A DNA stretch of 64,000 nt, taken from positions 2,059 through 66,058 of IMG/VR virus record IMGVR_UViG_2924769383_000001; one strand, 5' to 3'. The notes below the pieces were generated by a model. That model ran no database searches. It worked only from the letters and a program-made list of their open reading frames with translations, and was not told where the DNA came from. The DNA is from a virus (Duplodnaviria > Caudoviricetes). Positions 4,537 to 59,429 of the stretch are shown here, one piece after another. Each line of letters begins with the position of its first letter. Positions within the stretch are counted from its first letter, which is position 1. The position numbers and the translations under genes are program-made.

Positions 4537-4809
4537 ATGAACAAGACTGGGCGAGCCCGCTTGATGCGGGCCGAGGGGATGTCTTTTGCCGGGATTGCAA
4601 GAGACTTGGGAGTTGGATTGCAATGGGCTTACAAAATGGCCGGTGACGTTCTCTGCAATAACGACAATTCAGCCGTTCGCGGCGCGGAACTGAAGCCTAC
4701 CGCTCAGACGGTGGTCCGCCATGGCGCGATCAACGGCGGATGCTCAACGCAATCCGGCCTCATCGCAATTTCAATGCCGCGGATTACCGCGCTTCACGGT
4801 GCAGCATGA
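4537..4809 (+). CDS. HTH protein, Cro position
   Basis: RAEGMSFAGIARDLGVGLQWAYK HTH; first gene after rightward promoter; contains NNDN, ends GAA. Confidence 0.75.
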   Translation: MNKTGRARLMRAEGMSFAGIARDLGVGLQWAYKMAGDVLCNNDNSAVRGAELKPTAQTVVRHGAINGGCSTQSGLIAISMPRITALHGAA

Positions 4810-5006
4810 GCGCGGCGGGAGATAAGCCGCAGGTGGCCCTTGGCGCCACGGTAGTGCTTGAGGGTGTCGTGGTTGGCGTAACCAAGTTCCAAGACAGGCG
4901 CGACACCTACCTTGTGCAGTTCAAGCGTAAGGGGCGCTCATTCGAGGACTGGTTCTTCCTCGAAGACCTTGATGTTTTCACAGAGCAGGATGGGACCGGC
5001 ATATGA
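4806..5006 (+). CDS. Small SH3-like hypothetical protein
   Basis: ATG at 4806 overlapping upstream stop; GVVVG...YLVQF...EDWF, similar to next gene. Confidence 0.6.
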   Translation: MSAAGDKPQVALGATVVLEGVVVGVTKFQDRRDTYLVQFKRKGRSFEDWFFLEDLDVFTEQDGTGI

Positions 5007-5209
5007 TCGGCGGAAGGTGCAGAATTCTACTAGGCGAGTACGACGGCAATGTCGTCGGTAAGCGGACCTATATCGGCGAGGCAGACCGTTACGCGGTTCG
5101 CTACTTGGACGATAGCGGGCCGCAGGAACGCTGGTTCCAGGCGCATGAGATTTCATTCGATGGCCGCGAGGCCGAAGGCAATGTGGTGGATTTTAGGAGG
5201 ACGGCATGA
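5003..5209 (+). CDS. Small SH3-like hypothetical protein, probable paralog of 4806..5006
   Basis: GNVVG...YAVRY...ERWF pattern. Confidence 0.65.
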   Translation: MIGGRCRILLGEYDGNVVGKRTYIGEADRYAVRYLDDSGPQERWFQAHEISFDGREAEGNVVDFRRTA

Positions 5210-6687
5210 ATATGCATGTGAAGGCGGAGCTTAAGCTGGAAGCCGGTAAGTCCTATCGCGGCAAGTCTGGCGCAATTCATCGCGTCGAGACGAACGACAA
5301 TTCTGCGTGGCCGTTCAAGACTGCCGACGAAGACCTTGGCGTTAGCCGCTTTTGGAAGATCGACGGCAGCGGGTACAATACCGATGGCTGGAATAGCCGC
5401 GCAATGATCGGCGAAGATCTTGTCGAACTCGCCCCGCGCTTCTCCGTTGGTGACAAGGTGCGTCGTATCAATTTCGACAACAACCCTGTGATGCGTGTTG
5501 GCACTGAATGGATCGTGTCTGGATTCAAGAAGTATCGCGGTGATGACTACCTGGTCTTTCACGGCGGAAGCGACGGAAACGTCAATAATTTCGAACTTGT
5601 ATCTCCCGCCACCTACACCTCCTGCGCCGCAGCCGAAGTCGACAACCCGGCCGACGAGTATGGTGGCGGGAAGAAGTTCAAGGTTGAAGCAGGAAAATCC
5701 TATATCGGTGACGATGGCAAGACGTATGGGCCGCTAAAGGATTACGATTTCGCCGCTGGCCCCTTCATAATCGAACTCGGCGACGGCAACGTTTGGGATG
5801 CTGACGGCAAGTACGGCAAGGGTAATAACATCCGCGTCAACCTCGTTGCCGTTGCGCCAGCAACCGCAACCACATCGTCGGTAAGCGCGCTCCGCATCCA
5901 GCCAGGGCGCTACTACAAGACGCGCGACGGGCGGAAGGTCGGGCCGATGGAAGCGCGCGATGCCTGCGGCAGTAAATACGTGTGGCAATACGATTATGGA
6001 CGTCGCATCTTCCTGCCGGACGGGACCAACTTCGCCGGCCCTAATTCACCGGAAGACCTCATCGCCGAATGGCAGGACGAGCCAGCCGCAGCCGGGTTCA
6101 AAGTGGGGGATCGGGTAGAGAACGTCATTCCCGGCAACGATTACGACATGCTTGGCACAGTCACGGCACTTAAGGGTGAGGCATATCGAGTTCGGTGGGA
6201 CGGCCATTCAAGCGACGAAGGTCTGTCTTGGCGCCCGAACGAATTGCGCCTTGTTGCGTCAGCAACAATCGGCAATCGACCAACCACCATCGCCGACATC
6301 GTGCGCAAGCACAGCGGCAAGGCAGTCGTCATGCTTATCGAGGACGGCCAGCCGAAGCCTTCAACCCTGCCGTTTGTTCACTCTTCTCAGAGCGCAGCCG
6401 CGACCGAGGCCAGCCGCCTTGCTGGCATCAACAAGGGCAAGGAGTTCGGCGTCTACGTGTGCGTCGACGTGAAGAAGGTGGAAAAGACGTATGAGCACGA
6501 ATGGCAGCGGTTGGCGGCGCGGGGTAGCAAGATACCGGCAATCAAGGCTTACCGTGATGCAGGTGGCAAGCGGCAGACCTTCGTCGCGGCCGAATGGGGC
6601 TTCCCGGCACGTTATGAAGATCACCACGTCATTGGCCTAAAGGAAGCCAAGGACGCCGTAGAGCACTGGCTGGCCACAGCCGCATAA
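5206..6687 (+). CDS. Modular repeat protein with C-terminal ribosomal L7/L12-CTD-like motif
   Basis: Repeats xxxGKSY/GRYY and F(S/K)VGD(K/R)V; KIPAIKAYR...IGLKEAKDAVE near C-terminus. Confidence 0.8.
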   Translation: MNMHVKAELKLEAGKSYRGKSGAIHRVETNDNSAWPFKTADEDLGVSRFWKIDGSGYNTDGWNSRAMIGEDLVELAPRFSVGDKVRRINFDNNPVMRVGTEWIVSGFKKYRGDDYLVFHGGSDGNVNNFELVSPATYTSCAAAEVDNPADEYGGGKKFKVEAGKSYIGDDGKTYGPLKDYDFAAGPFIIELGDGNVWDADGKYGKGNNIRVNLVAVAPATATTSSVSALRIQPGRYYKTRDGRKVGPMEARDACGSKYVWQYDYGRRIFLPDGTNFAGPNSPEDLIAEWQDEPAAAGFKVGDRVENVIPGNDYDMLGTVTALKGEAYRVRWDGHSSDEGLSWRPNELRLVASATIGNRPTTIADIVRKHSGKAVVMLIEDGQPKPSTLPFVHSSQSAAATEASRLAGINKGKEFGVYVCVDVKKVEKTYEHEWQRLAARGSKIPAIKAYRDAGGKRQTFVAAEWGFPARYEDHHVIGLKEAKDAVEHWLATAA

Positions 6688-6748
6688 CCCACCACCACCC
6701 GCACACCAACAACCCTGCTGCACGCTGTGCAGCAGGCAGGAGGGACTT

Positions 6749-6958
6749 ATGTCAACAATCAACGGAACGCTGCGCAACGCGCGCATGATCTTCGACGGTG
6801 ACTCGCGCTGCCCTTGCCTTCGCGGCGAGGTTTACGGCGACACCAAGGGGCGGTTCGCGGACGGAACACCCATCACCACTAGCCGCTTAAAGGCACAGGA
6901 GGATGGCCTTGTCTTCCACACCACCTTTAGCGTCTACAAAGTGGAGTCGTGGGCATGA
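6749..6958 (+). CDS. Conserved small phage protein
   Basis: SD GGAGGG; GEVYGDTKGRFADGTPITTS motif. Confidence 0.75.
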   Translation: MSTINGTLRNARMIFDGDSRCPCLRGEVYGDTKGRFADGTPITTSRLKAQEDGLVFHTTFSVYKVESWA

Positions 6959-7146
6959 CCTATCACGACCAGCACGACCCCGAACTGCACGGCGCACCGC
7001 CCGACACCATCCCGCCAGCCGCGCAGCGCTACATGGCGGTGTGGCTGACTATCGCCATTGTCATCCTGCCGCTTGCCGTGTGGTGGCTGCTATGACCCGC
7101 TCACTGCCACCGGCCTGGTTGCTTGGCCTTATCGTACTGACACTCA

Positions 7147-7971: not shown

Positions 7972-8016
7972 GCTTCCTTTTCCCCGCACCACCATCCGAC
8001 CAACAAGGAATCAATC

Positions 8017-8637
8017 ATGGCCAAATTCGGCGTATCAATTGCAGTCACTGAAGAGAGCACAGAGCAGCGCGGCGAGTACGACAATCTCCCAAATGGCGTA
8101 TATCGCCTTGAGATCAGCGCGGCAGAAGTTAAGCGTAAGAACGAGGGCACGCAGCAAGAGGCGTCTGGCTTCAAATGCACCTTTGACGTGGTAGACCCAG
8201 AAGACCTGCGCGGACGCAAGGTGTTCGGCTACTACAATCTCAGCAACCCGTCAGCGCAAGCGCAGGAGATCGGCCAGAAGCAGTTTTCGCAGCTGCGTCG
8301 TGCCTTGGGTTTCGGCGACGTCGATGCCGAGATGGAAGAGCAGGACGTCATTGATGAAATGCGCCTGGTACCATTCGTTGCCACCATCGGCATGGGCAAG
8401 GTCCAGTACGAGAAAAAGCCGAATGGCGAAATCGTCAAAGACGCCGCTGGAAATCCAGTCGTTAAGTACGAAGCATCGAACGAAATCAGGCGCTACTGGT
8501 ATCCCGACCTGGACGACGCGCCGCCCATCGGCGTGACCGCCGCAGCGAATGACAACAAGGCTACGGCGAAGGTCGTGGCAAAGCCTGCGACCGTGGAGGC
8601 TAAGCCCGCCGTGGGCAGCAAGCCGTGGAAGCGGTAG
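8017..8637 (+). CDS. DUF669-like ssDNA-binding protein
   Basis: Follows Sak4; LPNGVYRLEI...GRKVF...SNEIRRY; internal AAANDN. Confidence 0.8.
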   Translation: MAKFGVSIAVTEESTEQRGEYDNLPNGVYRLEISAAEVKRKNEGTQQEASGFKCTFDVVDPEDLRGRKVFGYYNLSNPSAQAQEIGQKQFSQLRRALGFGDVDAEMEEQDVIDEMRLVPFVATIGMGKVQYEKKPNGEIVKDAAGNPVVKYEASNEIRRYWYPDLDDAPPIGVTAAANDNKATAKVVAKPATVEAKPAVGSKPWKR

Positions 8638-9212: not shown

Positions 9213-9246
9213 TCCGCCACCTACTACACAACATGAGGAGATTGCC

Positions 9247-10889: not shown

Positions 10890-11848
10890 TGCCAGCATTC
10901 CCGCGCCCAACGCCGTCGACTGTCCGCGCTATCTATGCGGCGTATGAGGCCGCTAACGAGCATTACGATAGCTTGGGCATCAGCGTTGGTGAGATCGGCA
11001 CGGAGTGCGACAGGGCGCTTTGGTATACGCTGCATTGGGCAAGCCAGCCGGAGCAGCTTGACGGGCGCAAGCTGCGCCTGTTCCAGACCGGCAACCTCGA
11101 GGAAGAGCGGCTTGTCGCCGACCTTGAGCGCATCGGCGTCGAAGTCTACGGCCAGCAAGATCGCATTCGACTTGTCTCCGGGTTCGTCCGCGGCAAGTGC
11201 GACGGCAAAGCGATGGGCATCATTGAAGCGCCAAAGACCGAACACCTGCTGGAGTTCAAGTCGACCAACGAAAAAGGAATGAAGGAACTCCAAAAACTGA
11301 AGGTCAAGGAAGCTAAGCCTCTTCATTACGGCCAGTGCCAAATCGGAATGCACGCCTTCGGACTTAGCAGGTGCTTCTACCTGGCCGCATGCAAGAACAC
11401 TGACACGCTCTACAGCGAGAGGATCGAGTACGATGCGGAATACTGCCTCCGGCATCTAGCGCGCGTTGAGCGCCTTGTGCTGGCCGCCGAGCCGCCATCG
11501 AGAATATCGGAGAAGCCCGACTTTTTCGGATGCATGTTCTGTTCGCACAAGGACGTATGCCACAGCGGAAAATGGGCGCGGGTGACCTGTCGTTCTTGCG
11601 TCCACTCGACGCCCGAGTTGGGTGGGGATTGTCATTGGTCTTGTGCCCGGTTCAGCAAGCCATTGTCTATCGATGAGCAGAAGGCCGCATGTCCTGCGCA
11701 TCTGTACCAGCCCGCCTTAGTACCAGGCACAGTCGAAAGCGTGGACGAAGAAGCAGAGCAAATAACGTATCGCCTTAGCAATGGCGAGCTATGGACAGAC
11801 GGCGAAACTAGAGAAGACACCAAAGACAACGCACAGGAAGCAGCATGA
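10889..11848 (+). CDS. Cas4/YqaJ-like PD-(D/E)XK exonuclease
   Basis: GTECDRALWY, GKCDG, LLEFKS, HYGQCQ, CMFCSHKDVC; no CRISPR array in window. Confidence 0.85.
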   Translation: MPAFPRPTPSTVRAIYAAYEAANEHYDSLGISVGEIGTECDRALWYTLHWASQPEQLDGRKLRLFQTGNLEEERLVADLERIGVEVYGQQDRIRLVSGFVRGKCDGKAMGIIEAPKTEHLLEFKSTNEKGMKELQKLKVKEAKPLHYGQCQIGMHAFGLSRCFYLAACKNTDTLYSERIEYDAEYCLRHLARVERLVLAAEPPSRISEKPDFFGCMFCSHKDVCHSGKWARVTCRSCVHSTPELGGDCHWSCARFSKPLSIDEQKAACPAHLYQPALVPGTVESVDEEAEQITYRLSNGELWTDGETREDTKDNAQEAA

Positions 11849-12363
11849 CACGCCCCAAAGAGTTTGATGCCAAGGTCATCCAGTGGCTGCCCTTCTTAAG
11901 GAAAATGGCGTTCAAGATGGAGCGCAGTGCGCAGGACCGTGAAGACCTGGTCAATGAAACTGTCGTGACCGCCTTGCATCGCTGGGCGTCCTATAGAGAG
12001 GGCGGCAGCTTTCCGGGTTGGCTGGTGTTTCAAATGCGCGAGCGTTGTCACGCCATGAGGTCTAAGAAATCTTCCGCAGCAGCGCTAAGCCTTGATGCGA
12101 AGGAGGAAATGGCCGGCAGCAACGACAATCATGCGCCTTGGTTCAGGGATCTTTCGGCCGCTTCATTGCCAGCCACCCAATCTGATGCTGTCGAGCTTGC
12201 TCAGGTATTCGACGCCATACCAAGGCGGTATCATACGGTTATGGCAAAGCTTGCCGCAGGTTACGAGCAGAAGGAAATTGCCGCATCGGAAGGCGTGTCG
12301 AGGCAAGCCATCCATCAACGCATTACAGCCTGTCGCGCACGTTTGAAGAAAGTTGCTGCTTAA
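11845..12363 (+). CDS. ECF sigma-factor-like regulator
   Basis: DREDLVNETVVTAL, FPGWL (region 2); GYEQKEIAASEGVSRQAIHQRI (region 4). Confidence 0.85.
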   Translation: MTRPKEFDAKVIQWLPFLRKMAFKMERSAQDREDLVNETVVTALHRWASYREGGSFPGWLVFQMRERCHAMRSKKSSAAALSLDAKEEMAGSNDNHAPWFRDLSAASLPATQSDAVELAQVFDAIPRRYHTVMAKLAAGYEQKEIAASEGVSRQAIHQRITACRARLKKVAA

Positions 12364-14093
12364 TGGCGCTCCGCTACTACCAGACCGAGGCTAAGCAGGC
12401 CGTGATGGACTACTGGGCAGAGACGCCCGGTAATCCATTGGTGGTCGCCGCCACCGGCACTGGCAAGAGCATGATGCAGGGATCCTTGACCTGCGACTTG
12501 CTCGACGGCTGGTCGGACCTTCGTATCATGAACACGACTCACGTCGTGGAGCTGGTCGAATCCAACTTCAAGGAATTGGTGGGCATGCGCCCCTTCGCGC
12601 CCGTCGGTATATGGGCAGCGTCTTTGGGCCGTGCTGACAGGCAGGCGCAGGTTCTGTTCAGTCAAATACAAACCGTCCACGACAAGGCCGAAGCCATCGG
12701 CCATGTCGACATCCTTCAAATTGATGAAGCCCACCTGGTGCCCTTTAAGCAGGCTACGATGTATCGCCGGCTGATCGACGCCTTGCTGGTGGTCAATCCG
12801 GACATGAAAATCAACGGCTTTACGGCCACCGATTTTCGCCTTGACGGGGGGCGCCTGACCGAGGGCGACGGCAAGCTGTTTGATGAGGTGGTTTATGACT
12901 ACGGCCTGCGGCGCGGTATCGATGACGGATATCTAACGCCGATCACCAGCAAGCCTGTTGGCACGAAATACGACATGACCGGCGTTGGTCGCTCGATGGG
13001 CGAATATAAGGCAAGCGACTATCGCGCAGCGGTAGATACAGAGACGCTAAATCAGCGCGTCATTGAGGAAGTTCTAGATACAGAAGGGCACCGCAATAAG
13101 GCTCTTATTTTCTGCCGCGGCGTCGAGCACGCCGGGCACATCAGGGATGCTTTCCGGAAGGCTGGGCGCAACGTCGAATTGGTCCACGGGGGAACGCCAG
13201 GCGGGGAACGTCGAAGGCTCATTGACAGGCTGAAGTCGGGCGAGATTTGGGGCCTAGTCAACGACAACATCCTTAGCACTGGAACGAACATCGTCGGCGC
13301 CGATCTACTGGTGGACTTATATCGAACGATGTCGGCTAGCCGCTATGTGCAGCGCGCCGGACGCCTAACGCGCGTCATCTACCCGCCAGGATTTGATCCG
13401 GAGGCGGTCGACGCCGAGGCTCGCCGCGCCGCGATCGCGTCATGGATCAAGCCAAACGGCAGGTACATGGATTTCGCCGGCAACATCAATGAGCACGGCC
13501 CGGTAGACATGGTTCAGCCGCGTAAGCCTGGCAGCGGTCAAGGCGAGGCGCCTATCAAGCTTTGCCCTTCGTGTGAGGAGATTTGCCACGCATCGGCTCG
13601 AGTTTGCCATTGCTGTGGGCATCAGTTCGTCTTTGAGGAAAAGCCTAAGTTTGCCGAGCGGGCAAGCGACGCGCCTATCATTTCCATTCAGTCAGACATG
13701 TGGCGCACTGTCACCGGCCGCCGCTTCTTCGAGCATCCCGGCAAAGAGGGCAAGCCGCCTAGCGTGAAGTGCTCGTACACTTGCGGGTTCCTTAATGTGA
13801 ATAGCTGGTACTGCCCGCAGCACCAGGGCTTTGCGAAAACAAACTCTGACCGCTTCTGGAAAGCTCACGGCGGTAAGACACCTTATCCTGACAACGTGGA
13901 GTCGTTCTTACTTCGCCAACACGAATTGAACGACACCGCTGAAATCGAGATTGAATACAACGGCAAGTGGCCCAACGCCAAGGCGTACAGGGCTGCCGCT
14001 ACGAACGACAATCAACGACAGGCGGATAACGATAATGAGCCGGTATCGGCTGGAATGAGGGACGTACTAGACGGAGATTTCATACCGTTTTGA
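12363..14093 (+). CDS. SF2 DEAD/DEAH-like helicase with C-terminal Zn ribbon (RadD/UvsW-like)
   Basis: AATGTGKS, IDEAH, GFTAT, YVQRAGRLTR, KLCPSCEE...CHCCGH. Confidence 0.92.
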   Translation: MALRYYQTEAKQAVMDYWAETPGNPLVVAATGTGKSMMQGSLTCDLLDGWSDLRIMNTTHVVELVESNFKELVGMRPFAPVGIWAASLGRADRQAQVLFSQIQTVHDKAEAIGHVDILQIDEAHLVPFKQATMYRRLIDALLVVNPDMKINGFTATDFRLDGGRLTEGDGKLFDEVVYDYGLRRGIDDGYLTPITSKPVGTKYDMTGVGRSMGEYKASDYRAAVDTETLNQRVIEEVLDTEGHRNKALIFCRGVEHAGHIRDAFRKAGRNVELVHGGTPGGERRRLIDRLKSGEIWGLVNDNILSTGTNIVGADLLVDLYRTMSASRYVQRAGRLTRVIYPPGFDPEAVDAEARRAAIASWIKPNGRYMDFAGNINEHGPVDMVQPRKPGSGQGEAPIKLCPSCEEICHASARVCHCCGHQFVFEEKPKFAERASDAPIISIQSDMWRTVTGRRFFEHPGKEGKPPSVKCSYTCGFLNVNSWYCPQHQGFAKTNSDRFWKAHGGKTPYPDNVESFLLRQHELNDTAEIEIEYNGKWPNAKAYRAAATNDNQRQADNDNEPVSAGMRDVLDGDFIPF

Positions 14094-17385: not shown

Positions 17386-17631
17386 GTGAGGTGCTTGACT
17401 TCGCTCCCAATTACGAGAGCAAAGACAATGTTCCGCGATAGGAGCAATTGGCATCGGTGGTTCGCCTGGTATCCGGTCAGATTGCTGCCCTATCAGGCGC
17501 AACTTACCGTCGATCCTATACGCAGATGGGTCTGGCTGCAGGTCGTGGAGCGCATCTGGTTTGACGAGGTTCCACTCTACAGGAGTTTCAATCGCGGCTG
17601 GGTGTATCAGCGCAAGGGGTGGAGTACATGA
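17386..17631 (+). CDS. Hypothetical Trp-rich protein
   Basis: WHRWFAWYPVRL...WVWLQVVER motif common in phages. Confidence 0.65.
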   Translation: MRCLTSLPITRAKTMFRDRSNWHRWFAWYPVRLLPYQAQLTVDPIRRWVWLQVVERIWFDEVPLYRSFNRGWVYQRKGWST

Positions 17632-18431
17632 AACACGACAATGACAACGTGACATATCCTGTATCTCATTCAAATGACACCCAGTATATGTCACATCACG
17701 ATGTCACAAACCCTACTACTAAATCACATTCACGCCCAGAATATGTGACACCTGCGGCAAACGACAATTTTCCGACAAAGATTGCCGCGCTCTACGTGGA
17801 AACCAATGGTGCTTACTATGGTTTGCCTGACATATATCCATGGGATGAAGCTAGGGACGCACGCAGGTACAGCGGACCGTATCCAGTAATCGCTCATCCT
17901 CCGTGCCAACGGTGGGGCAAACTGTGGGCCGGCCAACCTCTCTGGATTGCGCGCACTGGTGAGCGCAAGATTAAGGGCGACGATGGCGGTTGCTTTGCCG
18001 CGGCGCTGTCGTCGGCGCGTACCTATGGAGGCGTTATCGAACATCCGTGGGGTAGCCATGCGTGGGCGCATTTCGGCATAAACAAGCCGCCTCGATCGGG
18101 TGGGTGGATTGCGGCCGACTTCCATGGAGGATGGACGTGCTGCGTCGAGCAAGGAAGGTATGGGCACTACGCGCGCAAGCCAACAATGCTGTTGGCATAC
18201 CGAGTTACCTTGCCGGAACTTGATTGGGGCATTGGCGAGCCGCGCCTTGATCCGGCAGTAATTGAGCGTATGGGCCTTAAGCGAGCAAAGCGCATGGGTG
18301 AACTTGGACAGCGCGGAGGGGGGCAGAACAGCACGCCACGCATTCACACTCCGATTCCGTTCCGCGACCTTCTTATAGCTATGGCACGCACCGCGGCCAA
18401 CGGCAATCAGGAAGCGCGCCGTGCGGCCTGA
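17619..18431 (+). CDS. Divergent C5-cytosine methyltransferase-like protein
   Basis: VIAHPPCQRWG (PC motif), GVIEHP (ENV-like), RKPT; SAM-binding motif degenerate. Confidence 0.6.
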   Translation: MEYMKHDNDNVTYPVSHSNDTQYMSHHDVTNPTTKSHSRPEYVTPAANDNFPTKIAALYVETNGAYYGLPDIYPWDEARDARRYSGPYPVIAHPPCQRWGKLWAGQPLWIARTGERKIKGDDGGCFAAALSSARTYGGVIEHPWGSHAWAHFGINKPPRSGGWIAADFHGGWTCCVEQGRYGHYARKPTMLLAYRVTLPELDWGIGEPRLDPAVIERMGLKRAKRMGELGQRGGGQNSTPRIHTPIPFRDLLIAMARTAANGNQEARRAA

Positions 18432-18914: not shown

Positions 18915-21119
18915 ATGACCCCACTCGACCTGGCCCTCTCCTACGCCTCTGCTGGCATACCTGTTTTCCCCTGCCGCGCAGCCGACGAGGACACGGACGA
19001 ATTCGACCCCGTAACTGGCGAGGTGATCGTCCTAAAGCCGAAGACCCCGCTTACCGTTGACGGCTTCAAGGCCGCAACGCGCAGTAAGCCTCTCGTGAAG
19101 CGCTTCTGGGCTAAGTTTCCCGAGGCCATGGTTGGTGCGCCTTCCGGCGAGCCAATGAAGGCATGGATACTGGATATCGACGTCAAGAAACTTGATGACG
19201 GAACCACCATCAATGGCTTCGAGACGCTGTCCGCAATGGAGGAAGACAACGACGTTCTGGACACGGCCATGGCGACGACGCCCCGCGGCGGTCGGCACTA
19301 CTATTTCGCCTACGATGAGCGCGTCACAAATCGCCGCGGCAATCTCGGTCAAGGTGTAGACGTCCGCGGCAATGGTGGCTTCGTTTGCCTGCCTGGCAGT
19401 GTTATGGCTGACGGCGGACGATATGAGTGGCTCGACTACGATGGAGAAGGATTACCTCCGCTCAGGCCCGCCCCTAAGTGGTTGTTGGACATTATCCTGC
19501 CTCCGCCAACACCGCACCGCCAGCCCTACACCTACCAGGCCAACAATGACAACGAACCGTACGTCACCGCAGCGGTAGAGGCCGAACTGTCCAATCTGGC
19601 CGCAGCACCACAAGGCGGACGTGGCGAGGCACTGAACCGTGCCGCCTTTAGCTTGGGAACATTGGTTGGAGCCGACGTTCTATCACGCCACGAGGCGGAG
19701 GACGGCCTGTACGCCGCGGCAGCGTCCAATGGCGTGTTGGCGAAGGATGGCGAGAAGTCAACTTTGGCGCGGATCAAGCGCGGGCTGGACGCCGGATCCC
19801 GCCAGCCACGGGCAGTCCCTGAGCGGCAAGGTGACGACACGCCGATTGTTGGGTTGGGCAGGCTGGTGAAGAAGGCGAAGCCGGCGCCCGTGTCCGAAAA
19901 ACCTATACAAACTTCGGACAGCGAACCAGTAGCCAACTTGGAGCATGTATCGGCGCAGCCCTCAGAACCACCCGCCTTCACGGCCACGCCGTACACCTTC
20001 AAGGATCCACGCTCACTACCGCGGCGCGAGTTTGCGTTTGGTACGCATTACATCCGAAAATATGTGTCCGTCACAGTGTCGCCAGGCGGATTGGGCAAAA
20101 CCTCGAACAGCATCGTTGAGGCGGCGTCCATGGTGTCGGGCCGTGACCTGACGGGCATCAAGCCGCCCGCCAGGCTTAAGGTGTGGCTTTTCAATGCCGA
20201 GGATCCGCGCGACGAGATGGAGCGACGCATTCAGGCGGTATGCCTTCACTACAAGCTAAAGCCCACCGACATCAACGGCCATCTCTTTCTCGACACCGGC
20301 CGTGAGCAAGACCTGGTTATTGCTGTAGATGACAAGCGGACAGGCACAAAAATCCAAGTGCCAATCGTCGAGGCTGTGGTCGACCAAATTCGCCGCAACC
20401 AAATCGATGTGATGATAGTTGATCCATTCGTGTCGACACATCAGGTCAACGAGAATGATAACGGCGCGATCGACAAGGTTGCCAAGCTATGGGCGCAGAT
20501 TGCCGATGATACGAACTGCTCTATCGATATCGTCCATCATCTACGCAAGGTGGCAGACCGCGAGGCAACGGTTGAGGACGCTCGAGGCGCAGTGTCGCTG
20601 ATTGGTGCTGCCCGCTCAGTGCGCGTCTTGAACCGAATGTCGGAGGAGCAAGCTACGGCGTCCGGCGTTCCTGTGCAGGAGCGATTCTCCTATTTCAACA
20701 TCCACCAAGGTAAAGCCAATCTGACCAAAATGTCGACTAGCCAGGACTGGCGGCGCCTGGAGAGTGTGCCACTGGGCAACGGCACGACTTGGAAGCCGCA
20801 AGACTTTGCCGGTGTGGTGACGGAGTGGAAGTGGCCATCTCCGGAAGAAGCGGTTGGCGAAGTGACTGGAGACCAGTTGGAACAGATCAAGTCGCGCATC
20901 AGCAATACCGATTGCAAGTTGCACGCAGCGGCTGACAATTGGGTGGGGCGAGAGGTCGCCTACGTGCTTGGTCTGGATATCGCAATAAAGGCCGACAAGG
21001 CGCGTGTGGCTCGTCTCGTCAAGGCGTGGATAGAGGACGGAACGCTGCTCATTGTGAACCGTCGCTGCCCTATAAAACGCGAGAACAAAGACTTCGTAGA
21101 AGTTGCAGAGCTGTCCTAG
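18915..21119 (+). CDS. Bifunctional primase-polymerase + AAA_25 (RepA-like) helicase
   Basis: GIPVFPC, ILDIDVK, TPRGGRHYYF, DVRGNGGFV; SPGGLGKT, IVDPF, IVHHLRK. Confidence 0.92.
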   Translation: MTPLDLALSYASAGIPVFPCRAADEDTDEFDPVTGEVIVLKPKTPLTVDGFKAATRSKPLVKRFWAKFPEAMVGAPSGEPMKAWILDIDVKKLDDGTTINGFETLSAMEEDNDVLDTAMATTPRGGRHYYFAYDERVTNRRGNLGQGVDVRGNGGFVCLPGSVMADGGRYEWLDYDGEGLPPLRPAPKWLLDIILPPPTPHRQPYTYQANNDNEPYVTAAVEAELSNLAAAPQGGRGEALNRAAFSLGTLVGADVLSRHEAEDGLYAAAASNGVLAKDGEKSTLARIKRGLDAGSRQPRAVPERQGDDTPIVGLGRLVKKAKPAPVSEKPIQTSDSEPVANLEHVSAQPSEPPAFTATPYTFKDPRSLPRREFAFGTHYIRKYVSVTVSPGGLGKTSNSIVEAASMVSGRDLTGIKPPARLKVWLFNAEDPRDEMERRIQAVCLHYKLKPTDINGHLFLDTGREQDLVIAVDDKRTGTKIQVPIVEAVVDQIRRNQIDVMIVDPFVSTHQVNENDNGAIDKVAKLWAQIADDTNCSIDIVHHLRKVADREATVEDARGAVSLIGAARSVRVLNRMSEEQATASGVPVQERFSYFNIHQGKANLTKMSTSQDWRRLESVPLGNGTTWKPQDFAGVVTEWKWPSPEEAVGEVTGDQLEQIKSRISNTDCKLHAAADNWVGREVAYVLGLDIAIKADKARVARLVKAWIEDGTLLIVNRRCPIKRENKDFVEVAELS

Positions 21120-21821: not shown

Positions 21822-22256
21822 TTGGTATGGGACTGTAAGCCGCTAAATATGGGGACTGGGATGCGGAACGATGCGACAATTACGATATTGGATATCCCGG
21901 AGAATGTTACGTTGCCGGACGGAGCAACAGTGAGCAGACATGACGCAGATGCGCACATAAAAAAATCATATGGGAAGCCCTGTGTCGGCTATGTATTGCC
22001 AGCAAAGGGCAATGGCCTGATTGTCTATGCGGCATTTTCACCCAATGTAGAGCGCGACGAAAACGGCGACTGGCAGCGCGATGGTGAAAACATAACGTGG
22101 CATGCTACATTCAAGTCGGCATCCAGATTGGTGAAGAAGGGGTATCGCTCGCTAGACCGCATTGAAAATTGCGACGAAGAAGATTGGTGGGTAGGTGATT
22201 ACGCGGAGGACAACGATAACGACAACGAAGACGATTATTATTTGGAGGCCGCATGA
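21822..22256 (+). CDS. Acidic hypothetical protein (start probably near 21850-21861)
   Basis: ORF ends DNDNDNEDDYYLEAA, coupled to next gene. Confidence 0.65.
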   Translation: MVWDCKPLNMGTGMRNDATITILDIPENVTLPDGATVSRHDADAHIKKSYGKPCVGYVLPAKGNGLIVYAAFSPNVERDENGDWQRDGENITWHATFKSASRLVKKGYRSLDRIENCDEEDWWVGDYAEDNDNDNEDDYYLEAA

Positions 22257-23134
22257 CTCGCCACGCATCAATGGCTGACCAACTTAAAGCATTGCTGGCG
22301 TATCGCAATCGACCGGAAGGACCAATTGAAACCGTAAAGACGAACTGGAAGACGATAGCGGCCAACGACAATAATCCAGAGGACTTGGACGGGCTGTACA
22401 TCGAGCGAGAACGCCCAATCCGCCCAAGACTTGGCGAGATAATGGAGTCAGTCAAGAGCAAATACGTCGAGCATAGCGATGATGGCAAGATTATCCGCAT
22501 CGGCAAGCTACGTTTTAGCGACGGCACGCAAACGGAAAAGGCACACCGGTACAGCGTTGACGGTAAGCTCATTGAATATGATGCCGTGATGCCTATCGGG
22601 GCGATGCTGGGGACATCTGAAAAGCAAGAGCGCATTCTGGGCGGCGATACCATATCGAGCAACGGCGCTTACACTGCGGCATATGGCGGTCGACACCCCA
22701 ATAAGGTTAGACGAAAGGACAAGGATAAGCGGGCCTCAGAGAAGCCGGCGCCAGAACGCTCAAAGGCAGACATGCGAGCTGAGATTGCCTCACTTCCCTC
22801 CTTCCCTGTGAAAATGTACAAAAAGGGATTTCCGTGGAAGCCGTCTAATCTGCGTGAATTGTTCATGGGACTGGAGAAGGGAAGGAAAGGCGAATCGGGT
22901 TCAGTGGCGTGGGAGGATATTTCAACGCACATCGTTGAGCGCGAGGTTTGGGCGGAGACGATGGCTGCCCTGTCGAACGAAGATAAGGTCGATTTGGATA
23001 AAGTCATGACAGCCGACAACGTTTCAGATTTTGGCGGTACAGGCCACAGACGCACAAATGAGAGGCGCGGCAAGAGGCGACTGAAGGCAATGAACGACAA
23101 TTTTTATGCATCATATAAAAAATCAGCAGCGTGA
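22253..23134 (+). CDS. Hypothetical protein in late-regulator position
   Basis: Last gene before the non-coding/tRNA region and packaging genes; internal AANDN and C-terminal AMNDNFYASYKKSAA. Confidence 0.75.
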   Translation: MTRHASMADQLKALLAYRNRPEGPIETVKTNWKTIAANDNNPEDLDGLYIERERPIRPRLGEIMESVKSKYVEHSDDGKIIRIGKLRFSDGTQTEKAHRYSVDGKLIEYDAVMPIGAMLGTSEKQERILGGDTISSNGAYTAAYGGRHPNKVRRKDKDKRASEKPAPERSKADMRAEIASLPSFPVKMYKKGFPWKPSNLRELFMGLEKGRKGESGSVAWEDISTHIVEREVWAETMAALSNEDKVDLDKVMTADNVSDFGGTGHRRTNERRGKRRLKAMNDNFYASYKKSAA

Positions 23135-37126: not shown

Positions 37127-40066
37127 ATGGCCGATAGAACCGACGACCTTCTTATTAGCGTCAGTACTGATCTCACTACCATAAAAAGACAACTTAAGCA
37201 ACTCGGTCAGGATGTAGGTACTGCAACCTCCGGAATCCAGAAGCAGTTCGAAGGTGCGGGGAGGGGCATCGACAAGTCGATGTCTTCGCTACAGGACACC
37301 ATCAATCGCGTGACTGGAATTGCCAGGCAGTCCGGCAAGGAGTGGGCGGGCGCTCTTGCGGCTCCGGCCAAGCAACTTGACGATCTTAGGCGCGCGTATG
37401 TTCCGGCCTATGACGCGGCCAGAACTCTTCAGGAGCAGCAGCAGGAACTTACCCGCGCGCTTAGTATAGGGGCGATTAGCCTCGAGGAGTACTCCGGGCA
37501 CCTAGACAAGCTCGCCATTAGATACGATGCAACTGTTGCAGCAGCGGCCAAGCTTAAGGCTGAGTACTCTTCACTGGCGGAGGCCGAAAGGCTCGCTGCT
37601 AGCTCAAGCGATGGGCAGCGTGATATCAATGCGCTTACGGGCGTTGGCGCCGGAACGGCCAAGAGCGCTAGAGACTCTGCCGCTCTGTTTGCAGCAGAGA
37701 TGGATCGTCTTGATACAATAGCGTCTCAAAAGGCTCGCCAGATTGGCGACACATTTGGGAGCGATCTTGAGCAACGTTTGGTCCCCGGAGTAAAGTCGGC
37801 GGCCCGAGATTCCGCAAGCGTTTTTGAGGCGGAGCTTTCTAAGCTTGATGAAATTGCGCGCCTGAAGTCGGCTCAGGTCGGCTCCAACTTCGCTGCCGAT
37901 CTAAATGCTTCATTCGGGATTGGAGCTAAGTCTGGCAGCGCTGCTGCATCCGCATCCGTTTTTGAAGAATCGGCGCGCGACATGGATGAGATGGCCAGGA
38001 AGGCCACTTATCTTAAGGCGCTTATCAATCCGCTGGCTGCTGCACAGGATAGATACAACGCTGAACTGGCGGAATACTCCGCCCTTGCAAGTCGCGGTGC
38101 ACTAACTACTGACGAGCTAGCGCAGGCGCAGACGATGGCGAAGGCCAAGTTTGACGCGACAACCGCAGCAATGCGGAACCAGGCCAAAACTCTTGGTCAC
38201 GGCGCCGGCAACTTCAACACAGCCAACATAGCGGCGCAGTTTCAGGATATCGGCGTCACCGCAGCTATGGGCATGAACCCTCTGCAGATTGCGCTTCAGC
38301 AGGGCACGCAGCTTTCAGCCGTACTCAGTACGATGGGTGGCACTAAGAACACAATCGCAGGTTTGGGTGCTGCGTTCGCGTCAATAGTTAGCCCGGTATC
38401 ACTGGTTACGATAGGCGTTGTCGGTCTAACTGCTGCTGCCATCGAATATTTCACGACCTTCGAGTCCGGCTCCAGTAAAAGCGAGGAGACACTAAAAACT
38501 GAAGCAGACCTCATTCAGAAGGTCGCGAGTCAGTGGGGGGTAGCTCTACCGGCCCTCAAAGCATATGCCGACGAGCAGGCCGGGCTAGCCGATCAGCAAG
38601 ACAAACTAAACGCCCTAGTCGCAGCCCGCGAGAACTCTGGCGCCCCCTTGCTGGAAGGCTTCACTGATGCCACAGCTGAGGTTGCCGACCTTCAGGACAA
38701 GCTAAACACACTTGGCGAAAATAGCGCGGCACAGCAATTGCGCGACAAGTTCGAGGAGTTGAAAAAAGAGGTCGGCGAAGGCACGGTAACACAACAGAGC
38801 TTCAATGACGTCATTGAACTAGCTAAGGCAACTTTTGCCGACGCGAAAATAAATGGCGACGGCTTCATAGCCATGCTCTCCAATCTAGCGGGCCGGGCGT
38901 CGGCGCTGATCCCCACCATGGCTTCGCTTGCAGGCGAGGTTGATAAAGTTTTCGGTGGCAGCGGTTCTCCTAATGGCAGGTCGGTACGCGGCAAAAAGAA
39001 TGGGTACGACCCAAGATTTGGTGAATTGCCGGACACGGCACCTACGCCAGACAAGGCTCCTAATCGTGAAGATCAGGGCGCTTATGAAGACAAAATTGCC
39101 GCACGCGCAGCCAAAGCCGCCAGCAAGGCGCCAGCCAAAACCGCTGATGATCGCTTCTTTGAAGACATTGAGGCGATCCGTCAGCGCACAGCAGCGCTCG
39201 CGCAAGAGCAGGCAATCATGGGCCTGTCCTTTGAGCAGCAGCAAAAGCGAAAAATCGCCTTTGATCTAGAAACTACGGCCCTAAAGCAGGTCCGCGAGGA
39301 GGCTCGTAAAAAAGGCGAGGCCGACTGGCAAAACGCGCAGTTGACGCCCGATCAAATTGCCAAGATCAACGCCGTTTCAGACGCCTACGCAAAGCAGGCC
39401 GACGAACTGCGCAAGGCGCAGGACATGCAAGACCTTCAGCGGGATGTGCTGAAGGGAACGTTTGACGACCTGCGTTCCGCCTTGGATGATGGCAAACTTG
39501 ATTGGCAGGATTTCGCCAAGATCGCCGAAGGCGCCTTGGACAAGATCATCGACAAGATCGAAAACGATCTCATCGACTCCATCATGCAGGCTAACGGCGC
39601 TGCCGGTGGTGGCGGTGGCATTCTGGGCGGCATCTTGGGACTGTTTGGTGGTGGATCGAGCAACGTCTTCCCTGGCGGCGGCGTACTCAACAGCACTGGC
39701 GGCCTCTACGCTGACGGCGGCTTTACCGGAGCGGGCGGTAAGAACCAGCCCGCAGGCATCGTTCACAAGGGCGAGTACGTCTTTGACCAGGACGCAGTGA
39801 AGCGCATTGGTGTCGGCAACTTGGCCATGCTTCAGCGCGGTTACGCCAATGGTGGGCTGGTTGGTGCTCCGAGCTTGCCGCGCATTCAGGCGCCGGCAAA
39901 TCAGAATGGTGCGCCAAACATCACCTTTGCGCCAACCATCAACATGCCAAACGCTCAGAAGGGCGCGGGGGAAGAGGTGACGCAGGCGCTGAAGAAGTTT
40001 GAGCGGGAGTTCACACCTCGCGTCTTGAAGTCCTTGCGGGACGCCAGAACGACAGGAATGATCTAA
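37127..40066 (+). CDS. Tape measure protein
   Basis: 979 aa helical; AQFQDIGVTAAMGMNPLQIALQQGTQL; YADGGFTG..VHKGEYV tail. Confidence 0.95.
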   Translation: MADRTDDLLISVSTDLTTIKRQLKQLGQDVGTATSGIQKQFEGAGRGIDKSMSSLQDTINRVTGIARQSGKEWAGALAAPAKQLDDLRRAYVPAYDAARTLQEQQQELTRALSIGAISLEEYSGHLDKLAIRYDATVAAAAKLKAEYSSLAEAERLAASSSDGQRDINALTGVGAGTAKSARDSAALFAAEMDRLDTIASQKARQIGDTFGSDLEQRLVPGVKSAARDSASVFEAELSKLDEIARLKSAQVGSNFAADLNASFGIGAKSGSAAASASVFEESARDMDEMARKATYLKALINPLAAAQDRYNAELAEYSALASRGALTTDELAQAQTMAKAKFDATTAAMRNQAKTLGHGAGNFNTANIAAQFQDIGVTAAMGMNPLQIALQQGTQLSAVLSTMGGTKNTIAGLGAAFASIVSPVSLVTIGVVGLTAAAIEYFTTFESGSSKSEETLKTEADLIQKVASQWGVALPALKAYADEQAGLADQQDKLNALVAARENSGAPLLEGFTDATAEVADLQDKLNTLGENSAAQQLRDKFEELKKEVGEGTVTQQSFNDVIELAKATFADAKINGDGFIAMLSNLAGRASALIPTMASLAGEVDKVFGGSGSPNGRSVRGKKNGYDPRFGELPDTAPTPDKAPNREDQGAYEDKIAARAAKAASKAPAKTADDRFFEDIEAIRQRTAALAQEQAIMGLSFEQQQKRKIAFDLETTALKQVREEARKKGEADWQNAQLTPDQIAKINAVSDAYAKQADELRKAQDMQDLQRDVLKGTFDDLRSALDDGKLDWQDFAKIAEGALDKIIDKIENDLIDSIMQANGAAGGGGGILGGILGLFGGGSSNVFPGGGVLNSTGGLYADGGFTGAGGKNQPAGIVHKGEYVFDQDAVKRIGVGNLAMLQRGYANGGLVGAPSLPRIQAPANQNGAPNITFAPTINMPNAQKGAGEEVTQALKKFEREFTPRVLKSLRDARTTGMI

Positions 40067-53785: not shown

Positions 53786-53794
53786 GAGGGAATT

Positions 53795-56497: not shown

Positions 56498-56694
56498 CAG
56501 TCCTATACGATCCACCAAGCGGTTGGAGGTTTGGCTTCCCAAAGCCTTATGAGCCTTCAAATCCGCTTGAGCCTATCGAGCACACGTTGCGACGCGACGG
56601 CTATCCAGACGAGTTGCTGGCGCAAGGCTTGGCGAAATATTGCCGGTTCATGGGTAGCGATGAGGAATTGGAGGGCTTGCCGGATGCCGCTTAA
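56494..56694 (+). CDS. Small conserved phage protein
   Basis: YDPPSGWRFGFPK motif. Confidence 0.75.
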   Translation: MTVLYDPPSGWRFGFPKPYEPSNPLEPIEHTLRRDGYPDELLAQGLAKYCRFMGSDEELEGLPDAA

Positions 56695-57517
56695 TTGGGA
56701 CTCCGCAGCCCGCCGCTACGTCGAGCACGACACGCTGCCGCAGGAGACGTTTGGGCCGATGACCCGCGCAGAGTTCGATGCGGCACCGGTAGAATTCACC
56801 AACGACAACGTTGGCTTGCGAGGCGCGGCAGCCGAGGGCGCACGTGCCGTGGCGTCGACAGTCCATGTCCGCATTCCATCCAACGACAACACCGCTCGCC
56901 GGGGCGACTTCATGCAGACTTTCACGGCCCGCCAGTTCTGGCCGTTGGACGCTCGCAACGACGAGGTGCATATCGAGGACATTGCGCACAGTTTGAGCCT
57001 GCAATGTCGGTATGCCGGCCACTGCAAGCAGTTCTACAGCGTGGCGGAGCACTCCGTCCTGATTGCTAACTGGATCTGGTGGCACGGTTCCGCTGCCGAT
57101 GCGCTGTGCGGTCTGCTGCATGACGCTACCGAAGCCTATCTGGTCGACATGCCGCGACCTGTGAAGCGTAGCTTGCACGAGTATAGGCTGCACGAGGCGG
57201 CGCTCTGGAAAGTGATCGCCGCGCGCTACGGCTTGCCAGGGGTAATGCCAGATGTTGTGCACGAGGCTGACAATCGCATCATCGCAGACGAACTCGTCAA
57301 CATGGCGCCGATGGCATGGCACGCAAAGCATGACGACCCCCTTGGCGTCGAGTTGCAATTCTGGTCGCCGGCAGAGGCTGAGGCGAATTTTCTGGCGACG
57401 TTCGCGGCTTTGCAGAAGTTGGGCACACCAACAAACGACGACCACTACCCCGAACATGACCGCGCGGCGTCTGCGTCCGACCGCGCTTATCAATTGGCGA
57501 AGGAGGATATGGGGTGA
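56684..57517 (+). CDS. HD-domain phosphohydrolase (YfbR/5'-deoxynucleotidase-like)
   Basis: YSVAEHSV, LLHDATEAY, HEADNR. Confidence 0.88.
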   Translation: MPLNWDSAARRYVEHDTLPQETFGPMTRAEFDAAPVEFTNDNVGLRGAAAEGARAVASTVHVRIPSNDNTARRGDFMQTFTARQFWPLDARNDEVHIEDIAHSLSLQCRYAGHCKQFYSVAEHSVLIANWIWWHGSAADALCGLLHDATEAYLVDMPRPVKRSLHEYRLHEAALWKVIAARYGLPGVMPDVVHEADNRIIADELVNMAPMAWHAKHDDPLGVELQFWSPAEAEANFLATFAALQKLGTPTNDDHYPEHDRAASASDRAYQLAKEDMG

Positions 57518-57928
57518 CACCTAAGCAAAAGTACGATGAGCGGAAGCGCCTGCGGCTTGAGAACGACTTGCGGCTCGAACAGCGAAGATCATACGACCTA
57601 GACCGCGATGATGAAATGCAGCGCCAGTTCACCCGAGTCCTCAGTGCCATAGAGCGCATCGCCGAAGTGATGGAACTCTGGGCGGACAAGCAGGTGGACG
57701 CATGAGCGAGATTCCGAAGGATATTGAGAGCGCGGCGACTGTCGCCTTCTACTTGGCTTGGGACGCTGGCCACTATGCGCCCATTGCCGACGCCATCCTC
57801 GCCGAGCGCAAGCGGTGTGCGGATATAGCGACGGCTAATCTCCGCAACACAGGCCAACTGCTGTCTAGCCCGCCGCAGTCGGGTGCCGCTTGGGATATCC
57901 GCAACGCCATCCTTTCCGGTGAGCAGCC

Positions 57929-58306
57929 ATGAACACCTTCCACGTTGGGATGCAGGTTGTCTGTGTTGATGCGAAAGTGCCGCCGCATGTGACCATTCCT
58001 CTTGGGCTTAAGGAGGGCGCGATTTACGTCATCCGCTGGATAGGTCCGCACAATAGCTATGTAGACGGCGAGTTCATAGGTGTGCGCCTTGAAGGCGTCG
58101 AGCGCGGCCAGTGCCCAACCTATGGGCATGACGATCCGCCATTCAATGCCAAGCGCTTCCGTCCGCTGGTAAGCGACCCGCTTGCCATCTTTAGGCGCAT
58201 AGCCACGGATCCAGATTTTAAGATCGATGCACCAGAAGGTCCGGTGCGCGATCGACCGACGAGAGAAGGCGCGCCGAGGCGCAAGGTCAAGGAGGAGGTG
58301 GAGTGA
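57929..58306 (+). CDS. Hypothetical SH3-like protein
   Basis: FHVGMQVVCVD...RFRPL. Confidence 0.7.
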   Translation: MNTFHVGMQVVCVDAKVPPHVTIPLGLKEGAIYVIRWIGPHNSYVDGEFIGVRLEGVERGQCPTYGHDDPPFNAKRFRPLVSDPLAIFRRIATDPDFKIDAPEGPVRDRPTREGAPRRKVKEEVE

Positions 58307-58698
58307 TGGACAATCCAATGTGGACGCCATGGGGCAATACCGAGGACGCATTTGAGGTGCCCCCTGCGGCCAACGATAGCTTCTGTGACCGCGTGCTTAC
58401 CGTTGACACCGACGTCAAGGCGGCGATTGCCGACGATGCCAAGCGTATCGTGTCAGGTGCTCGGCGCGCCGCCTACGGCAAGCCGGAAGACAACTTTGAG
58501 CGGATTGCCAAGTTCTGGCAGGCGTTCTTTGAGAATACCGGTAGGCCGGAGGCCAATGTTACTGCGGCCGATGTGTCGCCGCTGATGCGCCTGATGAAGG
58601 AGGCTCGGCTCTGCGAGACGCCAGACCATCGCGATAGCTTCGTAGATCTGGTGGGCTATGCACTGACCGGCGCCGAGATCAATAAGGTTGCCGCATGA
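58303..58698 (+). CDS. DUF6378-like protein
   Basis: RRAAYGKPEDNFERIAKFW, MRLMKEAR, DSFVDLVGY. Confidence 0.8.
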   Translation: MMDNPMWTPWGNTEDAFEVPPAANDSFCDRVLTVDTDVKAAIADDAKRIVSGARRAAYGKPEDNFERIAKFWQAFFENTGRPEANVTAADVSPLMRLMKEARLCETPDHRDSFVDLVGYALTGAEINKVAA

Positions 58699-59429
58699 CG
58701 CTTCCGCTGCCCAAACTTCTTGAAAGGTTCTTCGTCAGTTTCACCGTTGACGAGGAGACCGGATGCTGGAACTGGACCGGAGAAGTTAAGCCCAACGGAT
58801 ATGGCGTCATTTCAAAGAAGGTCAAAGGCAAGCGACATCGGTTCTACGCGCATAGGTTTTCCGCAGAACACGTTGCTGGTAAAGATGTGCCTGCTGACAT
58901 GGACGCTTGTCATGAGTGCGACAATCGCAGATGCGTCAATCCAGACCATCTATTTGTAGGCACAAGAAAGAAGAACATGGAGGATTGCGTCGCTAAAGGC
59001 AGGCAGGCTAAAGGCGATATGCTTCCTCAAACAGTTCTGACTGAGGAGCAAGTTCAGTCCATCCGGGCTGACGACCGCGACTACGAGACGATTGCTGACG
59101 CATTCGGAGTTGGATGCTCCAGCGTAAGCAACATCAAGAACCTGAAGGAATGGTCATGGCTACCGGTGGCTTGTCATATTGCCAAGTGCGAGACTGGCGA
59201 TCGTATAGCAGGCGAGGCGCATTATTGCGCCAAGCTAACAGAGGAAAAGGTGGCTCACATTAGAACTTCAGATGAACCGCTTGCCGCCTTGGCTGTTCGA
59301 TATGGGGTCTCCTACAACACAGTTCTTTCAGCATTGACTGGAAAGACATGGAGGAGGGTTACTGTGGCTGCTAACGACAATCGCCTCAAGGCTAGCAAGG
59401 TTGACGAAGCGCTGGTGAGGTGGGGATAA
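58695..59429 (+). CDS. HNH endonuclease with duplicated C-terminal HTH modules
   Basis: GCWNWTG..NGYG, HECDNRRCVNPDHLFVGT..NMED. Confidence 0.92.
   Translation: MTLPLPKLLERFFVSFTVDEETGCWNWTGEVKPNGYGVISKKVKGKRHRFYAHRFSAEHVAGKDVPADMDACHECDNRRCVNPDHLFVGTRKKNMEDCVAKGRQAKGDMLPQTVLTEEQVQSIRADDRDYETIADAFGVGCSSVSNIKNLKEWSWLPVACHIAKCETGDRIAGEAHYCAKLTEEKVAHIRTSDEPLAALAVRYGVSYNTVLSALTGKTWRRVTVAANDNRLKASKVDEALVRWG

Follow-up and report, generated by a model that had tools for sequence, protein, structure and literature searches.

The virus record IMGVR_UViG_2924769383_000001 (Caudoviricetes) is 66,058 bp long, carries direct terminal repeats and is rated complete. The window analysed here is a stretch of 64,000 nucleotides (bases 2059–66058 of that record), in which an early-gene and replication block occupies ~5–23 kb, the terminase-to-tail gene calls ~24–55 kb and a second non-structural gene block 55–59.4 kb; four transfer RNA (tRNA) genes (Met, Ser, Ser and Thr) are also present. 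The subject of this study is a small peptide, Asn-Asp-Asn (NDN), often extended by Ala to ANDN or AANDN, which recurs in the early proteins of this phage. Part of the copies stand in gene-encoded C-terminal tags resembling the one that transfer-messenger RNA (tmRNA, or ssrA) adds to proteins in the host, and the others are found at inner, N-terminal and tail positions. We show that the latter are selected short linear motifs, and we consider what might read them, with the host protease adaptor SspB as the main candidate.

By its primase, the phage has 80 relatives in IMG/VR (identity 52–58%) and 37 in bacterial genomes, nearly all of these being Rhizobiales prophages, with Rhizobium, Agrobacterium, Brucella/Ochrobactrum, Shinella, Ahrensia and Bradyrhizobium as host genera. 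The closest isolated phages by the same protein are Rhizobium phage RHph_X2_26 (47%), followed by phage 16-3 (33%). It is a temperate phage of Rhizobium-type bacteria, and ~100 relatives, phage 16-3 among them, share its ANDN habit. The right arm of phage 16-3 (L203, positions 35000–60195 of its record) has 12 NDN in 6,864 residues, including the helicase double motif described below and an N-terminal copy on its HNH protein, and 13 of its 39 proteins end in Ala-Ala. A phage-encoded SspB or tmRNA was sought in the window, and neither was found.

A six-frame scan of the window gave 21 in-frame NDN on the + strand. The window proteins contain 19, as opposed to 1.4 expected from residue-shuffled proteins; ANDN was observed six times against an expectation of 0.15 and AANDN six times against 0.02, and none of 2000 shuffles matched the observed counts of the three peptides. 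Seven + strand NDN, on five proteins, belong to complete ssrA-like C-terminal tags, in which the motif lies 14 residues or fewer from an Ala-Ala stop. The sites outside such tags number ~13, roughly nine-fold above expectation; we refer to a site as inner when it is >17 residues from the protein end. No NDN occurs in the terminase-to-tail gene calls (24–55 kb). As a host control, 1.2 Mb of the chromosome of Brucella pituitosa, host of a related prophage, was analysed (350,157 residues). This sample has 12 NDN where 21 are expected (observed/expected 0.57) and three ANDN, with neither AANDN nor an encoded full tag in the same residues, making NDN 29-fold rarer per residue than in the phage. The depletion is mild (rank 210 of 5791 tripeptides) and we do not claim avoidance. 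Ala-Ala ends are likewise unevenly distributed, being found on 2.8% of the open reading frames (ORFs) in the host sample and on 12.6% in the window phage.

The resemblance to the host tag is close. The tmRNA tags of five hosts of related prophages read ANDNYAEARLAA (three hosts), ANDNNAKEYALAA and ANDNKAQGYALAA, and all begin with ANDN. tmRNA itself contributes a further Ala, so that the mature head becomes AANDN, which is the same as the core of the phage motif. SspB (PF04386) is encoded in all five host genomes and is homologous to the SspB of known structure from Agrobacterium (2NYS) and Caulobacter (2QAS/2QAZ); in four of the five (G001, G002, G004 and G005; loci L118–L127) sspB and the tmRNA gene are no more than ~150–160 bases apart. 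In E. coli, it is the C-terminal Ala-Ala of the tag that ClpX reads. E. coli SspB binds the tag's first seven residues and tethers the substrate to ClpX (PMC9963277). In the C-terminal copies of the phage family, the first Asn most often stands 10–13 residues from the end, compared with 11–12 in the host tags. The inner sites are not complete ssrA-like degrons, having no Ala-Ala end at a tag-like distance. Proteins with inner motifs only end in Ala-Ala more often (34.6%) than motif-free proteins of the same loci (15.8%). The latter figure (80 loci, + strand proteins) is itself well above the 2.8% of the host sample, and the Ala-Ala enrichment is therefore independent of the head motif.

How the motif behaves in evolution was followed in 80 related phage loci, each of which carries ~10 NDN per 6,800 residues, mostly not C-terminal. 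The logo from 343 distinct inner contexts reads [A 38% / P 29%]-[A 59% / D 16%]-N-D-N-x-[P 41%]; a further, secondary maximum stems from a second NDN eight residues off, and inner and C-terminal copies share the [AP]-A-N-D-N core, extra Ala included. Extreme N-termini, linkers between domains and tails all hold such sites. Their carriers include an SSB-like protein, a sigma factor, a helicase, a primase, a methylase, an HD protein, an HNH nuclease and several others, and at least nine unrelated protein families are involved. At least one NDN outside the conserved core is present in 96% of distinct primases, and at least one motif in 94% of sigma factors, in both cases at differing positions. 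Apart from residue 300 of the helicase and residue 514 of the primase, the sites fall outside Pfam domains, in indel-rich and variable regions of the alignments. Conservation of the core amid drifting flanks, together with presence kept while position moves, marks the ANDN sites at inner, N-terminal and tail positions as selected short linear motifs.

As to what they do, the initial annotation had offered two explanations, namely adaptor-docking sites or former C-terminal tags left behind by fusion or read-through. On balance we favour the former, and predict from the sequences that the inner ANDN sites are SspB-docking motifs mimicking the tag head. This proposal fits everything tested, that is, selection at the protein level, placement in apparently flexible segments, identity to the tag head and the presence of SspB in the hosts of relatives. 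The phage sites reproduce the head of the tag that the host tmRNA encodes; in the proposed mechanism, they would be bound by host SspB, which would keep the phage proteins at ClpXP. Where the protein also has Ala-Ala or another end readable by ClpX, the two elements would form a two-part degron and shorten the life of the protein. Docking could just as well bring in ClpX for remodelling or for competition. Carriers without Ala-Ala (the helicase, the SSB-like protein, the primase, the HD protein and the HNH nuclease) might instead recruit ClpX for remodelling, or simply occupy the adaptor. Both SspB binding and the subsequent degradation we infer from the existence of a selected peptide equal to the tag head. 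The restriction to early, non-virion genes suggests timing control of replication functions or containment of leaky expression.

The same sites could in principle be a nucleic-acid signal (a protein-binding site, a recombination hotspot or an RNA element) with the consensus AACGACAA, read only incidentally as Asn-Asp-Asn. Indeed, ACGACAAT is among the top over-represented 8-mers, with a strand bias of 12 versus 1, and the sites are often at gene or module boundaries. The strand bias, however, simply tracks the gene strand, and the preference for adjoining Ala or Pro is a feature of a peptide, not of DNA. In the 80 loci, AAYGAYAAY occurs 756 times in frame and 48 times out of frame; a DNA consensus kept regardless of reading frame, which the initial annotation had named as the observation that would speak for a nucleic-acid signal, was thus not found. 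All eight synonymous spellings of NDN are used roughly as codon usage predicts (AAC 60%, GAC 58%), and with 758 occurrences NDN is 15–27 times commoner than NND (28) or DNN (48), NNN being found 34 times. On the + strand of the window, all 13 copies of AACGACAA are in the NDN frame, with varying codons. Frame-locking, the use of every synonymous spelling and the excess over NND and DNN together mean that selection acts on the peptide, not on the DNA, and we consider a nucleic-acid signal extremely improbable. Other candidates were discarded as well. A translational effect of consecutive NAY codons decoded with queuosine was considered, and the other orders of Asn and Asp are not enriched, the phage tRNAs being those for Met, Ser (two) and Thr; by reasoning only, a sequon for N-glycosylation and a site for signal peptidase were dropped as misfits to the pattern. 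The idea of gene-accretion scars, former tagged C-termini trapped by fusion or by loss of a stop codon, gains some appeal from three window sites (17760, 19545 and 56801) at which Ala-Ala follows 7–9 residues past the first Asn of NDN. At 17760 and 19545, though, this Ala-Ala belongs to conserved domain sequence (AALYV and YVxxAV, respectively) that is present in homologues without the motif there. A screen was made of the NDN in the 80 loci that are 60 or more residues away from either protein end (166 sites, primase core excluded), using blast for homologues of the upstream segment that are separate proteins ending at the site. For none of the 163 deep-internal sites with homologues does a homologue end there with an NDN tail, and the only two matches were spurious minus-strand ORFs. 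Agreeing with this, homologues of the primase and of the early protein p17619 are continuous across the motif site. Moreover, some motifs are at extreme N-termini and therefore cannot be C-terminal scars, and an NDN that is kept while its flanks drift is under selection rather than decaying. Within the reach of this sample, these alignments lead us to reject the fusion-scar explanation, which we regard as very improbable.

Two other readings accept a protein-level motif. One keeps SspB as the reader and reverses the purpose, such that motif proteins without a degron would occupy SspB during infection, blunt the delivery of ssrA-tagged and other cargo, and so protect the phage's own proteins that end in Ala-Ala. 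Several presumably abundant early proteins of the required kind exist, with a motif and without an Ala-Ala end (the SSB-like protein, the primase and the helicase, whose two copies in tandem would raise occupancy), yet many other motif proteins end in Ala-Ala at the spacing of the host tag, which points to degradation rather than protection, and eight residues, the spacing of the tandem, probably do not suffice to span the two sites of an SspB dimer. We find this decoy role quite unlikely. The other reading replaces the partner. Here the motif would dock onto something else, for instance a hub encoded by the phage or a replication protein of the host, and its likeness to the tag would matter only in the true C-terminal tags. 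In its favour, most carriers serve in replication or DNA modification, and carrier tails hold other peptides of host type, one on the helicase (DFIPF, similar to the SSB tip) and one on the methylase (DLPLFG, similar to a clamp motif). In addition, the motif has a Pro preference past NDN that the host tags do not share, and relatives in other alphaproteobacteria are without it. Against it, the inner and C-terminal copies have the same [AP]-A-N-D-N core down to the Ala that mimics the residue donated by tmRNA, the portal and several non-replication proteins carry the motif too, and no candidate partner was found. A partner other than SspB appears rather unlikely to us.

Having stated our preference for SspB docking, we would note several facts that weigh against it. 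Order-promoting residues are only modestly fewer in the motif flanks (0.27 vs 0.31), and the AlphaFold models of two carriers, p22253 and the HD protein, are of low confidence, with a mean predicted local distance difference test (pLDDT) score of 49 and 37, respectively; in the former, the motif lies in coil with a pLDDT of ~37. Counts across the family lack phylogenetic independence. An Ala-Ala end is missing from five of the nine carriers of inner motifs in the window (the helicase, the SSB-like DUF669 protein, the primase, the HD protein and the HNH nuclease), which leaves delivery in these five cases, with no known ClpX degron, unexplained. The Pro two residues past NDN (41%) is preferred by the phage motif and absent from the host tags. 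Finally, the ANDN motif is absent from distant relatives in the Rhodobacterales and Sphingomonas loci, although the tags of these hosts presumably start with ANDN as well. In the distant primase relatives of L113–L116 (Loktanella, Rubellimicrobium, Sphingomonas and a Pseudomonadota), the only NDN is that of the ATPase core, NENDNG. Since the distant relatives outside the Rhizobiales are without the motif, the ANDN habit seems limited to one lineage. For this Rhizobiales temperate lineage, phage 16-3 included, we would give even chances to the view that a portable five-residue copy of the tag head is a position-independent handle plugging the early proteome into SspB, and that it may form, together with the Ala-Ala ends, a modular two-part degradation code by which the lifetime or remodelling of replication proteins is set. 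If so, a phage would be mimicking the site of a protease adaptor through short linear motifs at the scale of its proteome.

The individual sites of the window are collected in Table 1.

Table 1. NDN sites and similar peptides in the window. Positions are nucleotides of the window, residues are those of the protein; the last column gives the peptide of the initial annotation with the position at which it was located in the analysis.
Protein (gene)	Peptide	Position	Strand	Place and remarks	Initial annotation
Sixth C-terminal tag		gene end at 2496	-	Same tag type as the five + strand tags	
Doubtful ORF (4537-4809)	CN-NDN-S	4660..4668	+	Overlaps a better gene call, 4740-5006	
p5206 (5206-6687, ends ATAA)	ET-NDN-S	5293..5301	+	Residue 30; no homologue spans the site	
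DUF669 SSB-like protein (8017-8637)	AANDN	8542..8556	+	C-terminal tail, residue 178, 29 residues from end	AAANDNK, 8548
Sigma factor (11845-12363, ends KKVAA)	S-NDN-H	12121..12129	+	Linker between regions 2 and 4, residue 93	GSNDNH, 12121
Helicase (12363-14093)	V-NDN-ILSTGTN	13260..13268	+	Residue 300, inside Pfam Helicase_C (234-338)	
Helicase, C-terminal tail	T-NDN-QRQA-D-NDN	14004..14036	+	Tandem, NDN at 14004 and 14028	ATNDNQRQADNDNE, 14004/14028
Methylase, tail	AANDNDLPLFGAAA	16889-16927	+	C-terminal tag; motif in 27/27 methylase homologues	
Five C-terminal tags	NDN near Ala-Ala stop	protein ends 16927, 21810, 22256, 23134, 56497	+		
p17619 (17619-18431, ends RRAA)	HD-NDN-V	17640..17648	+	Near N-terminus; homologue (L076/L102) starts MKHDNDNV	
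p17619, second copy	AANDN-F	17754..17768	+	N-terminal region, directly ahead of conserved AALYV	PAANDNF, 17760
Primase (18915-21119)	AN-NDN-E	19545..19553	+	Residue 211, past Prim-Pol domain	QANNDNE, 19545
Primase	VNE-NDN-GAIDK	20454..20462	+	Residue 514, inside AAA_25 ATPase domain	
p22253 (22253-23134, also with C-terminal tag)	AANDN-N	22358..22372	+	Near N-terminus; conserved in 26/36 homologues	AANDNN, 22364
Tape measure	PANQNG	39893..39910	+	NQN in a low-complexity stretch, not NDN	PANQNG, 39893
HD protein (56531-57517)	FT-NDN-V	56801..56809	+	Residue 91; window only	FTNDNV, 56801
HD protein	PS-NDN-T	56882..56890	+	Residue 118, linker ahead of HD-type domain	PSNDNT, 56882
Small protein (58303-58698)	PAANDS	58363..58380	+	Not an NDN motif; 87%-identical homologue reads PARPAAPARVSES	PAANDS, 58363
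HNH endonuclease (58695-59429)	AANDN-R	59367..59381	+	18 residues from end	AANDNR, 59373

Nine of the eleven peptides listed in the initial annotation proved to be true in-frame NDN on the + strand at the places given for them. The remaining two, PANQNG and PAANDS, are not NDN, and the former is probably due to chance. The accompanying statement that nearly all lie in linkers holds broadly, as judged by Pfam boundaries and alignment indels, with the reservation that primase residue 211 stands at the start of a conserved helix. As for motifs buried in folded cores, two NDN that had not been listed, helicase residue 300 and primase residue 514, are inside folded domains. In homologues of the helicase, residue 300 falls in NNS or NDN followed by a conserved (L/M)(S/T)TG. 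The primase residue 514 motif is invariant in 77/77 homologues and persists in distant relatives, where it is the sole NDN. Both are parts of the fold; the helicase copy is not a linear motif.

Tails provide the most regular examples. In the DUF669 protein, the domain covers residues 18–131 and the motif at 178 lies past it. All 17 homologues have NDN at the same position of the tail, with variable flanks, and since the conserved K-R-P-W tip comes after it, the motif is internal in all of them. The DUF669 tails in L023–L080 have a degenerate second copy (ANSN, ANNN or SNDN) eight residues past ANDN, which is missing from the window protein. This second copy may echo the 8-residue tandem of the helicase and reflect a duplicated octapeptide unit. 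The two NDN of that helicase tandem are retained by 53/65 and 59/65 homologues, at a fixed distance of eight residues from Asn to Asn, the four intervening residues and the flanks being free to vary. The helicase C-terminus itself reads D-F-I-P-F (14076–14090), and DDDIPF, DDEIPF or similar in relatives (L001–L080). We take DFIPF to be the signature C-terminal tip of bacterial SSB, and it looks like a second host-peptide mimic sharing the tail with the tandem ANDN. Past ANDN, the methylase tail continues with DLPLFG, and with QADLFG, QASLFG or NLPLFG in relatives; DLPLFG resembles what we take to be the motif for binding the beta sliding clamp, QL[SD]LF.

Elsewhere, the position of the motif has shifted. 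In the sigma factor, regions 2 and 4 occupy residues 13–74 and 118–169. Its homologues have the N-terminal motif [AP]ANDN-RPxxFDA in 18 of 20 cases; the window protein has no N-terminal copy and yet carries an NDN-bearing insertion in the linker between the two regions, from which we conclude that the motif has moved. The N-terminus of the p17619 homologue (L076/L102) goes from MKHDNDNV directly to AALYV. In the window, a His/Ser/Thr-rich insertion of ~40 residues lies between the two NDN copies, and p17619 thus carries two putative docking motifs where its homologue has one. The primase motif at residue 211 is found at this position in 1/78 sequences, that of the window; in homologues, NDN stands elsewhere in the linker, at one place in 55/78 and at another in 18/78. 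In homologues of p22253, N38, N40 and P42 are nearly invariant. In the HD protein, residue 118 lies within [AP][AS]NDN in 5/6 homologues, with indels on both sides, followed by a conserved RRGDFMQTF, whereas at residue 91 the homologues read TINDM or TVNRA, such that FT-NDN-V is either a recent gain or due to chance.

The HNH endonuclease offers a case of a tag in decay. Its closest homologue (L195, 57% identity) ends in AANDNRISKEVLRWAA directly before the stop codon, which is a full tag, and the window protein has a small insertion and has drifted to the end ...VRWG. By this comparison, the window motif is a degenerate C-terminal tag that has lost its final Ala-Ala, not as the product of fusion. 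The motif of the doubtful ORF at 4537–4809 is absent from its one weak homologue. In the structural block, the portal protein terminates in PPAANQNAPTTRAA (28134–28172), a variant of the tag with Gln for Asp. Its relatives end in ANDNKPSGAAAA, ANDNKPNEAKAA or ANDNQEDEAEAA, and the portal is the only virion protein with a tag.

The nearest known system is the native ssrA tag with SspB and ClpXP (AANDENYALAA in E. coli; ANDN tags and Caulobacter SspB-alpha, 2QAS/2QAZ, in alphaproteobacteria). The phage motif shares with it the five-residue head including the extra Ala, the apparently unstructured segments in which it stands and hosts that own both tag and adaptor, and the C-terminal copies keep the spacing between head and Ala-Ala. 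Unlike the native tag, which is added by trans-translation, the phage motif is gene-encoded, and it also stands at N-termini, within linkers or well away from the C-terminus. An Ala-Ala end is frequently missing, some copies are paired eight residues apart, and Pro is preferred past NDN. Separation of the adaptor site from the degron has precedents in the SspB-mediated delivery of the N-terminal fragment of RseA and of engineered DAS+4 tags. There, too, the adaptor peptide is apart from the end that engages the protease, and tethering raises the local concentration at ClpX; those substrates, however, have one site each and measured binding, whereas in the phage the reader and the outcome are putative. 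Eukaryotic viruses mimic host recognition peptides with short linear motifs. The phage sites resemble these in being short, in apparently disordered regions, gained independently in unrelated proteins, shifting in position and copied from a host peptide, and differ in that the putative host reader is a protease adaptor. To our knowledge, such mimicry has rarely been documented in phages. The integration-dependent immunity of cluster N/P mycobacteriophages uses gene-encoded ssrA-like C-terminal tags on repressor and integrase (PMC5764923), and likewise has a temperate phage hard-coding the host degradation tag into its own proteins. Those tags, however, are C-terminal ClpX-type ends on two regulatory proteins and are removed by integration, as opposed to a putative adaptor-binding head alone, found in a dozen unrelated early proteins at whichever position is flexible. 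A search of the literature gave no earlier description of a phage proteome in which copies of the tag head stand at inner and changeable positions.

Because the same motifs are present in phage 16-3 of Sinorhizobium meliloti, the idea is directly testable. If SspB does read the sites, they would be a cheap and movable way of letting one host adaptor govern how stable a dozen unrelated proteins are. They would also be among the clearest cases of host-peptide mimicry in a phage, a theme familiar from eukaryotic viruses. Their natural variation would define the minimal recognition peptide of SspB-alpha, and they would furnish a natural set of adaptor-only tags with which proteolysis could be controlled in Rhizobium, Agrobacterium and related bacteria. 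For the temperate phages themselves, the motif would amount to a proteome-level device for the timing or containment of toxic early functions.

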